Virus record (IMG/VR): IMGVR_UViG_3300009154_000029
Source: a virus
Taxonomy: Duplodnaviria; Heunggongvirae; Uroviricota; Caudoviricetes
DNA length: 64,000 bases
Reading direction: 5' to 3' (one strand)
Position 1 is the stretch's first letter. Every line of letters starts with the position of its first letter. A program made the position numbers and the translations under genes. The notes under the pieces were generated by a model. The model worked only from the letters and a program-made list of their open reading frames with translations, was not told the origin of the DNA and searched no databases. Shown here piece after piece: positions 44,143 through 48,460 of the stretch.

Positions 44143-44322
44143 ATGAAAAAAACATTTGCATTGATTGCCTTATCAGCTATTTTAGGATTGACTTCTTGTG
44201 GCGGTGCTTCAACATCAACTCCTGCTACTACTGATAGCACTCACGTAGATTCTACTAAAGCTACTGTTGATACTGTTAAAGCTACAGTTGACACAACAGC
44301 AGTTGATAGTACTAAGAAGTAA
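44143..44322 (+). CDS. Small Thr-rich lipoprotein (59 aa, not in ORF track)
   Basis: MKKTFALIALSAILGLTSC lipobox; DST repeats; terminator at about 44346-44377. Confidence 0.8.
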   Translation: MKKTFALIALSAILGLTSCGGASTSTPATTDSTHVDSTKATVDTVKATVDTTAVDSTKK

Positions 44323-44424
44323 TCTTGGAAAAAATTAGGAAATCAGAAAAGCTTAGATAAATTCTAAGCTTTTTTTTATGGGATAATGAAATTTTAATAC
44401 ATATTAGCAATAATAGTATCACAC

Positions 44425-44555
44425 ACAGGAGTGGCGGAAGGGGATTAAGCCGGCTTAAGCCCTAATGTTAGACGTAGCCTTTTTAGATTTCCGGGATTTA
44501 ATTAGGTCAGTTGCAGAGTAATCGAACTGTGAAGGTGCGAGTCCTTCCTCCTGTA
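44425..44555 (+). ncRNA. tRNA-shaped RNA (131 nt) with D-loop and anticodon-loop insertions
   Basis: Acceptor ACAGGAG/CTCCTGT+A; T-arm GAAGG-TGCGAGT-CCTTC; Leu-type D elements separated by an inserted hairpin. Confidence 0.7.
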
Positions 44556-44560
44556 CAAAT

Positions 44561-44641
44561 GGCCCTCTGGTGGAACGGTAGACACTTAGGTCTTAGGAAC
44601 CTATGCCGAGAGGCGTGAGAGTTCGAATCTCTCGGGGGTCA
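44561..44641 (+). tRNA. tRNA-Leu(TAG), class II
   Basis: TAGGT-CTTAGGA-ACCTA, long variable arm, canonical T-arm. Confidence 0.92.
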
Positions 44642-44661: not shown

Positions 44662-45087
44662 ATGAGAAAGATCTCAATTTACCTCGACGATATCAGAATA
44701 CCTATCGAACACCCAGAAAACAAAATATGGGAGATAATTAGAAGCTATGAAGATTTTGTGGAAGTTGTAGAGTTAGTTGGTTTAGATAATATAGATATTA
44801 TTTCACTAGATCACGATCTAGATCCTTCTGCGACAAAGCACTTTCTCGATGAGGTTCTTCTAACTTATCAAATTGACTATTCTAAGATAGAAGAGAAAAC
44901 TGGATTGGATGTTGCCAAATGGTTAATAATGCATTCTATAGAGACCGGAAAGAAATTACCTCTCTGTTACGTTCACTCTGCAAATCCTATAGGTGCAGCA
45001 AATATAGAGGGCCACATAAATCTCTATTTGAAAAAATGCAGAATGCCAGAGAACTGTGTTAGAGCCAAATGGAAATGTGTCAGATAA
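44662..45087 (+). CDS. Cyclic-phosphate-processing receiver-like domain protein
   Basis: IYLDDIR, ISLDHDL, VHSANPIG motifs. Confidence 0.7.
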   Translation: MRKISIYLDDIRIPIEHPENKIWEIIRSYEDFVEVVELVGLDNIDIISLDHDLDPSATKHFLDEVLLTYQIDYSKIEEKTGLDVAKWLIMHSIETGKKLPLCYVHSANPIGAANIEGHINLYLKKCRMPENCVRAKWKCVR

Positions 45088-46507: not shown

Positions 46508-46590
46508 AGTCAGGTGGTGGAATTGGAAAGACACTAGGGAAACCTTCCCGAGAATGAAAGTTCATACAGGTTCGAATCCTGTCCTTACTA
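46508..46590 (+). ncRNA. tRNA-shaped RNA with collapsed anticodon loop
   Basis: Acceptor AGTCAGG/CCTTACT+A; T-arm ACAGG-TTCGAAT-CCTGT; anticodon arm GGGAA-ACC-TTCCC. Confidence 0.7.
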
Positions 46591-46974: not shown

Positions 46975-47121
46975 AGTCAGGTGGTGGAATGGTAAACGCA
47001 TTAAGATAACAGGACTGTATGTCTGTCTTGGAGTGGATATACAAAGTCAAGCTGTGTTACTCAGATTAACCAAGTGACGAGGGTATGCTTAATTTTACAG
47101 GTTCGATTCCTGTCCTGACTA
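46975..47121 (+). ncRNA. tRNA-shaped RNA (147 nt) with an approximately 80-nt structured domain replacing the anticodon loop
   Basis: Perfect acceptor AGTCAGG/CCTGACT+A; T-arm ACAGG-TTCGATT-CCTGT; closing stem ATTAAG/CTTAAT. Confidence 0.75.
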
Positions 47122-47822: not shown

Positions 47823-48281
47823 ATGGAAAGATCATTCAGAACGCTGGGCAATAATAAAAAGATAGATCTTTTTCCCTACATTAAGGAGTATTTAGAGCTT
47901 CATAGTGGAGTTCAGATCCTGATTGGATGTGATTCACAGAACAGAAAGAATGACACGATTTATGCAGTTGTAATCGGTCTATACACGCCAGGTAAAGGTG
48001 CTCATGTTCTTTATAGTAAATTTAATACAGTAAGGGAAAGAGATTACGTTAATAGACTTCTTAATGAGGTTTGGTTCTCGGTTGAAACTGCAGAAACTAT
48101 TAGAAAAGATGTTGGGGTTGTTGCTAAGTGGATAGATATTGATCTTAATCCAGATCCTAAGTATCGATCAAATCAAGCTCTTACAAGTGCGGTTGGAATT
48201 GTTACTGGCATGGGATATCAAGTGAGACATAAGGGTAACTCACCTGTTATGACCTATGCAGCAGATCATCTGGTTAAATAA
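47823..48281 (+). CDS. YkuK/DUF458 RNase H-like protein
   Basis: IGCDSQ, LLNEVWFS, IDIDLN, YAAD. Confidence 0.85.
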   Translation: MERSFRTLGNNKKIDLFPYIKEYLELHSGVQILIGCDSQNRKNDTIYAVVIGLYTPGKGAHVLYSKFNTVRERDYVNRLLNEVWFSVETAETIRKDVGVVAKWIDIDLNPDPKYRSNQALTSAVGIVTGMGYQVRHKGNSPVMTYAADHLVK

Positions 48282-48303: not shown

Positions 48304-48460
48304 TGAAGGATGGTGAAAGCGTACGCATGGCAAACACACCCTCTCGTCTCGGGGGTGGGGATAAAGAAATAGATAGAATGTATGGGGTTGACCACCTGCT
48401 TGCAAGCACTAATGCATTTTATTGAATCTCCTCTTGAAGGTTCGACTCCTTCTCCTTCAG
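48304..48460 (+). ncRNA. tRNA-shaped RNA (157 nt) with D-loop hairpin and an approximately 77-nt branched variable arm
   Basis: Acceptor TGAAGGA/TCCTTCA+G; T-arm GAAGG-TTCGACT-CCTTC; GATATATA at 48286. Confidence 0.75.

Follow-up and report, generated by a model that had tools for sequence, protein, structure and literature searches.

Results

A tRNALeu-like RNA gene heads the tRNA cluster

The window analyzed here, a 64,000-nt stretch of viral DNA, looks like part of a large phage; judged by neighboring genes, its closest relatives are viral contigs as long as 430 kb. We infer a Bacteroidota host from an excess of promoter boxes and from a cellular sister branch of the RNA described below in Flavobacterium-type DNA; TATATTTG, the Bacteroidetes −7 promoter box, occurs 19 times in the window against 6.5 expected. 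A promoter scan of the window gave a signal no higher than chance. The tRNA cluster of the window begins with a plus-strand RNA gene of 131 nt with a tRNALeu-type body (44425..44555; 97 bits with the family model, by construction). Behind the lipoprotein-like gene upstream of it (44143-44322) lies a terminator-like hairpin with a U run (44347..44377, plus strand), read by eye and not called by software, which is the same in L182 and L191, the nearest two relatives. CCA is not encoded at 44425-44555; CAA comes next, as with most neighboring tRNAs. A canonical tRNALeu(UAG) (44561..44641, plus strand) lies 5 nt downstream, and the two RNAs probably share one precursor transcript. The gene that follows (44662..45087, plus strand) encodes cREC, a cyclic-phosphate-processing receiver for which a role in healing RNA ends with a cyclic phosphate has been predicted (PMC7824862); it is a local neighbor, present at 6 of 61 family loci. 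Both cREC (44662-45087) and an RNase H-like (YkuK) gene (47823-48281) lie within the tRNA cluster.

The RNA, whose parts all lie on the plus strand, can be laid out as a cloverleaf with two enlarged elements. The 5′ strand of the acceptor stem (44425..44431) forms seven of seven pairs with 44548-44554, and discriminator A73 is 44555. Then come U8, G9, the D stem 5′ strand G10-C11-G12 (paired with 44473-44475), G13, A14, and A15 (44432..44439), the invariance of which is partly by construction because our search patterns imposed the U8–A15 segment. A hairpin is inserted in the D-loop (44440..44463; insert size in the family, 27–32 nt). It contains a 14-nt palindrome (44445-44458) and ends in a self-complementary tip, GCCGGC (44449..44454), the predicted site of an intermolecular kissing interaction. 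The remainder of the D-loop and the D stem 3′ strand follow (44464..44475); position 18 is U here and A in most relatives, and G19, at 44467, is conserved. At the anticodon position is an extended arm without a 7-nt loop (44477..44507), identical in L182 and L191; a second CCGG at its tip (44491-44494) is confined to the window lineage. The variable arm (44508..44529) has 22 nt, an internal bulge, and a GNRA cap, GTAA (44518-44521). The T arm (44531..44547) has 5 bp and the loop TGCGAGT, in which G55 (44537) replaces U55 and C56 and A58 are kept; its A51–U63 pair is weak.

The original prediction had read the perfect 7-bp acceptor, A73, the T arm with its TGCGAGT loop, and the long variable arm from the sequence, and each is where it was placed. 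It also described an insert of about 27 nt between GGCGGAA and TAGACG; an insert is present, but the gap is 29 nt, about 26 nt of it in excess of the neighboring tRNALeu, and it forms a hairpin. The palindrome had been noticed as well, but not the trait that is conserved, a self-complementary hairpin tip. A 23-nt stretch does occupy the anticodon position, but it had been taken for an open loop; because a 4-bp stem encloses eight further pairs and a 3-nt loop, the element is an extended arm. As had been argued, the inserts are too short for group I or II introns (14–32 nt versus a catalytic core of at least 200 nt) and match no Rfam model. The RNA at 44425-44555 was also, as expected, not called by ARAGORN, and Rfam models gave no match there even at an E value of 10.

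The tRNA-shaped core covaries across a family

Homologs were sought with gapped core patterns (33 members) and a later G55 pattern (26), and two more came from Bacteroidota bins. The resulting 61 distinct members, 98 to 131 nt long, occur in large phages, metagenome contigs, and these two bins. The patterns imposed D-arm motifs and part of the T-loop, and in the first set also the acceptor; they left free the insert, the anticodon region, the variable arm, A73, U48, and the 51–63 pair. L182 and L191 are syntenic with the window and 95% and 98% identical to its RNA, and all other members are at most 68% identical to it. The members fall into 14 clusters, and because they are related, member counts overstate their independence.

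In the core helices, 93.7% of cells are paired, versus 85.3% in shuffled and 37 to 48% in slid controls, and 14 of 25 core pairs have changed on both sides. Acceptor cells are 100% paired, in part because the patterns imposed them; A73 (60/61) and U48 (61/61) were not imposed. The acceptor sequence differs between subgroups, with AU, UA, UG, or CG at 3–70. The family is characterized by a covarying acceptor, D, and T core of tRNALeu type, A73, G55, and a GNRA-capped variable arm. By itself, the window RNA folds no better than its shuffles (z −0.87), so the claim of more-than-chance structure is made from covariation among homologs. That covariation demonstrates selection on the tRNA-shaped core, and on this comparative evidence the element at 44425-44555 is a member of a real RNA family that is absent from ARAGORN and Rfam calls.

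These absences and the weak folding score would suit a decayed tRNA pseudogene. This explanation has next to no chance of being right: random decay of the stems, which would have spoken for it, was not found in the relatives, which instead carry compensatory changes in all variable helices, and the 61 members are spread over several phage groups. The covariation, with the palindromes described below, largely refutes it.

For most members, a tRNA gene lies no more than 400 nt away. No phage protein family is linked to the RNA, the best reaching 15 of 61 loci, and none of the loci retrieved through the cREC neighbor held a family member. An exact search with the T arm gave zero matches in IMG/VR, and no cultured carrier was found, because BLASTN against 50,697 phage records returned ordinary tRNAs or nothing. 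Among 185,579 species genomes a strict pattern had no match, and a loose pattern found two family members, both in the genomic islands described below; in 150 genomes of the same family as the Flavobacterium bin, only tRNALeu was matched. We found no description of this tRNA-mimic family in the open literature.

The anticodon arm is not that of a decoding tRNA

The region bounded by positions 25 and 48 is 26 to 56 nt long among the 61 members. Arms at the anticodon position have loops of 3 to 8 nt, and in 13 of 61 members a single hairpin stands there. The combination of a 5-bp anticodon stem, a 7-nt loop, U33, and a conserved anticodon is not found in the family, and once the D insert had been removed, ARAGORN made scattered calls with no shared anticodon and left more than half of the members uncalled. 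Because the anticodon arm varies freely or is absent, the family is not one of decoding tRNAs. The spans, loop sizes, and one-hairpin members bear out the suggestion of a non-decoding tRNA mimic made in the original prediction.

The other suggestion made there, a pre-tRNA spliced by proteins, fares poorly. Removal of the D insert and of 14 nt after position 37 would leave tRNALeu(UAG); one register does give a 7-nt loop with U33, UAG, and A37, and ARAGORN accepts many excision variants. However, the anticodon depends on the register (TTA in 189, TAG in 78, and TAA in 39 of 392), and without the D insert there is no common anticodon. In relatives the insert or the whole arm is missing. A lenient scan found a BHB-like motif in 14 of 61 members, and neither a splicing endonuclease nor RtcB was found in two carrier phage records (83% and 93% complete). 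Moreover, a normal tRNALeu(UAG) lies 5 nt away, and a covarying tip would be useless in a discarded intron. We therefore consider splicing very improbable. The tRNALeu at L162:9055-9336 contains what is probably a group I intron, an insertion of about 200 nt in its anticodon loop.

UAA is kept in the shortened arm of six members, and the arm of the window RNA ends in the same TTTAAT. In its core, the RNA matches a Flavobacteriaceae tRNALeu(UAA) at 31 of 41 positions versus 20 of 41 for the adjacent phage tRNALeu. Both observations fit descent from tRNALeu(UAA), which the sequences make likely.

The elbow is retained in part. The family has a 7/5 acceptor–T domain with a discriminator, and G19 and C56 are kept; A18/G55 replaces G18/U55 in 50 of 61 members, and the window RNA has U18/G55. 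Where the pattern allowed either base, G55 was found in 32 of 33 members, against 15 of the 941 ordinary tRNAs at these loci. The variable arm carries a GNRA cap closed by two pairs in 58 of 61 members. The 51–63 pair is A–U or U–A in 58 of 61, versus 19% of tRNALeu in the same loci; it is such a pair in 68% of ordinary tRNATyr as well. An A–U or U–A pair at 51–63 costs about 1 kcal/mol of EF-Tu affinity (PMC3239215).

A tRNALeu-type body that avoids the ribosome might be an aminoacyl donor, charged by host LeuRS and feeding or titrating a transferase, comparable with the staphylococcal cell-wall tRNAGly. LeuRS reads A73 and the shape of the D and variable arms rather than the anticodon, and the RNA has Leu-type identity elements and a core nearer to a Flavobacteriaceae tRNALeu(UAA) than to the adjacent phage tRNALeu. 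LeuRS also contacts the tRNA elbow, however, which the 26-nt insert and A18/G55 remodel. The weak EF-Tu pair is likewise present in the staphylococcal donor tRNA (PMC3239215), but no transferase is linked to the RNA and the class I synthetase family was unmatched in two carrier records, leaving this role unlikely.

The D-hairpin tip is a switching palindrome

The D insert forms a hairpin with a tip that is self-complementary in 53 of 54 distinct inserts. A Watson–Crick palindrome of at least 4 nt is present in all 54 (off the tip in L197), and one of at least 6 nt in 47. When the arms were kept and the loop was redrawn, 19 and 8 of 54 were expected, respectively, with maxima of 30 and 20 in 3000 draws; in a related scaffold family with U55, the counts are 16/60 and 7/60. 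The first set of members gave the prediction, which was then applied to a held-out set fetched with the insert unconstrained, where palindromes of at least 4 nt occur in 24 of 24 inserts and of at least 6 nt in 22 of 24, against 12.1 and 3.8 expected. No palindrome as long as 6 nt occurs in the loops of these RNAs at the anticodon position or in the variable arm.

The identity of the palindrome is not conserved. Fifteen perfect hexamers are built on eight central tetramers, and a ninth tetramer, AGCT, is found in a single member, which lacks a full hexamer. The hexamers switch inside alignable flanks, a single cluster containing CCATGG, TTGCAA, ATGCAT, CCGCGG, and CTGCAG, and the palindrome center lies 12 to 14 nt after A15 in 57 of 61 members. 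Adjacent loop positions thus covary as palindromes, a trait of kissing-loop oligomers. Because the tip tetramer rarely recurs within the same RNA (3/61, window lineage only), its pairing partner would be another copy; because adjacent tip bases cannot pair within one strand, a homodimer formed through a kissing loop is most likely. We computed dimer energies with ViennaRNA, which models an extended duplex and no kiss. The window RNA gave −20 kcal/mol, versus −11 with the tip randomized and −7 to −12 for the neighboring tRNAs, and randomizing the tip cost computed stability in 32 of 33 members. Together, these data make it probable that the RNA homodimerizes through a kissing loop at the tip of its D hairpin. 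The same palindrome signature marks cross-chain bridges that cryo-EM has confirmed in OLE (L9.3) and GOLLD (L21a) (10.1101/2024.12.08.627333).

A palindrome could instead act as DNA, as an operator or nuclease site, or be the product of a template-switch mutation. GTGCAC is indeed invariant in the bacterial island branch, beside a divergent WYL regulator. This reading is nevertheless quite improbable: 15 hexamers switch within near-identical flanks at a fixed distance from A15, and neither the remaining hairpins of these RNAs nor the U55 family have palindromic tips.

Other tRNA-shaped RNAs of the window and of related loci carry comparable elements. One at 48304-48460 has a short palindromic D-loop insert, GCGTACGC, that switches among relatives (TAGCCTAGGCTA in L131, GTCTAGAC in L162, and AAGCTT in L147), and its computed dimer energy is raised (−15). 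Self-pairing of the D-loop may thus be a reusable module. The RNA at 46508-46590 has a normal D-loop, and its variable arm is the module that family members L249, L283, and L288 carry, which would suggest that modules are swapped between scaffold RNAs. A member of the much larger U55 scaffold family lies at 46975-47121; the acceptor of this family, which has more than 100 loci among the matches listed (L011–L128), is mostly AGTCAGG, and its D-loop hairpins and anticodon and variable modules appear shuffled (L022, L025, L047, and L114). Some U55 scaffold RNAs have palindromic D-hairpin tips, TCTAGA, TCCGGA, and CATATG (L082:3908-4049, L083:7901-8022, L100:6107-6234, and L137:9714-9819). A sister group with an 8-nt T-loop and an encoded ACC(T) end comprises L153:10907-11022, L155:9848-9961, and L161:10129-10247; L153 and L155 lack a palindromic tip. 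In further G55 tRNA-like RNAs from gut phages and Clostridia bins (L215, L233, and L350–L359), palindromic tips are found on an extended anticodon arm (CTGCAG and GTGCAC) or on the variable arm (GACGTC and GTGCAC).

A sister branch precedes an AAA+ ATPase gene in Bacteroidota

The two members from Bacteroidota bins lie about 20 nt before a gene for a 550-aa AAA+ ATPase. This arrangement recurs in eight of eight listed loci (six distinct groups) with an ATPase identity of at least 41%; homologs 41 to 77% identical all have the RNA upstream (60–72 bits), and those at 39%, 31%, and 29% identity have none. The divergent gene encodes a WYL-domain regulator in five of the eight loci. The RNA is retained where the WYL gene has been replaced, and WYL loci without the ATPase have no RNA. 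GTGCAC is the loop sequence of all island RNAs, with a stem that varies. Genes near the RNA in various islands include GIY-YIG, YaaA-like, Sir2, HipA, and restriction genes. A Flavobacterium-type island (L226, L236, and L317–L326) has the WYL gene divergent from the tRNA-like RNA, a gene for the winged-helix AAA+ ATPase, one for a small membrane protein, and GIY-YIG and YaaA-like genes.

From its gene content, the island reads as a defense-type locus; PADLOC returned generic ATPase matches only for the Flavobacterium-type island. Fold prediction for the ATPase suggests a generic Cdc48/proteasome-type AAA+ domain after two winged-helix-like units, the latter read from predicted secondary structure, and gave no functional lead. 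The candidate IetA was rejected, its match being far under the cut-off. The island was found in none of 400 other Bacteroidia genomes, and no island-type RNA was found in viral contigs. A search for the island ATPase in five phage records, of which two were carriers, gave no match; it was run without a positive control.

Phage copies might jam or imitate a bacterial partner, with the island RNA acting as a ligand or antitoxin-like partner of the ATPase. The constant position of the RNA before the ATPase gene, its persistence through WYL replacement, and its absence from WYL loci without the ATPase argue for such a partnership, whereas its absence at ATPase homologs of 39%, 31%, and 29% identity argues against it. 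Islands are also rare and the phage RNA common, phage tips are mostly unable to pair with the island GTGCAC, and the island may merely have captured a phage RNA. We regard this mimicry as improbable. A broader conjecture, which we hold to be doubtful, is that a dimeric two-armed tRNA mimic would be the RNA part of an undescribed WYL-regulated AAA+ ATPase defense module in Bacteroidota and that large phages would carry versions with a private kissing code to imitate or jam such tRNA-sensing immunity.

Discussion

The family combines traits of RNAs that are otherwise separate. With class II tRNALeu (RF00005) it shares the 7-bp acceptor, A73, a 3-bp D stem with G13/A22, A15–U48, G19–C56, a long variable arm, and a 5-bp T stem; it differs in having no conserved anticodon arm, in A18/G55, and in the 27–32-nt D-loop insert with its palindromic tip. 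Like GOLLD, ROOL, and OLE, it has a switching sequence and, by prediction, palindromic kissing-loop homo-oligomerization (10.1101/2024.12.08.627333; PMC12990946). Those RNAs are large (577 nt for OLE and >800 nt for many GOLLD) and not tRNA-shaped, whereas the family has 98 to 131 nt, a tRNA body, and no Rfam match. YrlA-type Y RNAs (RF02553) are also tRNA mimics of about 100 to 130 nt, occur in phages too, and are substrates of tRNA enzymes (PMC4201824). In contrast to them, the ends of our family form a normal acceptor stem and no Ro60-binding motif was seen; three carrier records (83%, 93%, and 40% complete) contained no TROVE (Ro60) gene, and RF02553 was unmatched at the locus. RNA C and RNA D of phage T4 (species 1 and 2) are likewise small, stable transcripts encoded among phage tRNA genes; neither has an annotated function, and RNA C has a T arm and a tRNA-like 3′ end as here. 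They have no Leu-type D arm, however, and the family model matches only the T4 tRNALeu in that region. In tmRNA, which has a tag reading frame and no D stem, the 3–70 pair is G–U, versus A–U here, and ARAGORN called no tmRNA.

The self-complementary 6-nt loop of the HIV-1 dimerization initiation signal mediates homodimers, and GUGCAC of the island branch is one of its sequences; the molecules are unrelated and the likeness is an analogy only. The T-loop of the staphylococcal cell-wall tRNAGly also has G55. That tRNA shares a T stem weak for EF-Tu and an altered D-loop GG but is of normal size, with a Gly anticodon loop and no dimer hairpin (PMC3239215). Allo-tRNAs and tRNASec-like RNAs are noncanonical cloverleaves too, some of them not used in translation (PMC7609411), but they are 8/4, 9/3, or 8/5 with anticodons, whereas the family is 7/5 and has none. 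The RNA thus fails to qualify as YrlA, T4 RNA C or D, a canonical tRNA, an allo-tRNA, or tmRNA; by analogy, it would work like a tRNA mimic (YrlA and T4 RNA C) joined to a kissing-loop oligomer (OLE and GOLLD).

As a tentative account of the whole, we propose that a tRNALeu-derived dimer without anticodons acts off the ribosome as a decoy or ligand with two arms, directed at host proteins that recognize the ends of tRNAs. The RNA would be cotranscribed with the phage tRNAs and, because its acceptor, T arm, and G19–C56 elbow are intact, would mature like a tRNA through RNase P and CCA addition. The missing anticodon, G55, and the weak EF-Tu pair at 51–63 would keep it off the ribosome. Two copies would then join elbow to elbow through the self-complementary tips of their D hairpins, a step strongly suggested because the palindrome switches. 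Such a dimer would display two acceptor ends and, more speculatively, could engage host proteins that recognize the top half of tRNA, the likeliest class of target being tRNA-targeting defense enzymes or sensors. Phage tRNAs are known agents of counter-defense (PMC11455837, PMC7824862). The cellular sister branch in WYL/AAA+/GIY-YIG islands speaks for this account; the phage RNA without an accompanying protein family and the weak 51–63 pairs of tRNATyr speak against it.

The evidence for dimerization would equally serve a scaffold RNA, in which the tRNA body provides only excision and stability while the kissing hairpin and the GNRA arm build a dimer or larger assembly, in the manner of a small-scale GOLLD or ROOL. 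The second CCGG of the window lineage could give chains or rings; a search for more long-arm members with a second CCGG found none. The GNRA cap in 58 of 61 members and acceptor sequences that differ between subgroups agree with a scaffold, and GOLLD and ROOL, whose function is unknown, reside in phage tRNA arrays and oligomerize through kissing loops (10.1101/2024.12.08.627333; PMC12990946). In contrast, the near-constant A73 (60/61) and U48 (61/61), with the biased T stem, point to a tRNA end that proteins read for more than processing, which leaves a scaffold possible but rather unlikely next to the decoy or ligand that we favor.

Natural RNA homodimers are rare (PMC12990946), and we found no description in the open literature of a tRNA body built to dimerize. 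Because ARAGORN and Rfam miss the family, it points to a hidden layer of non-decoding RNAs in phage tRNA arrays. The RNA is 100 to 130 nt long and comes with natural compensatory tip variants, so the predicted dimer can be tested cheaply, and the bacterial island branch offers a genetic handle on function. Whichever way such a test comes out, it would inform the question, dating back to T4 RNA C and D, of why tRNA-like genes are carried by large phages.
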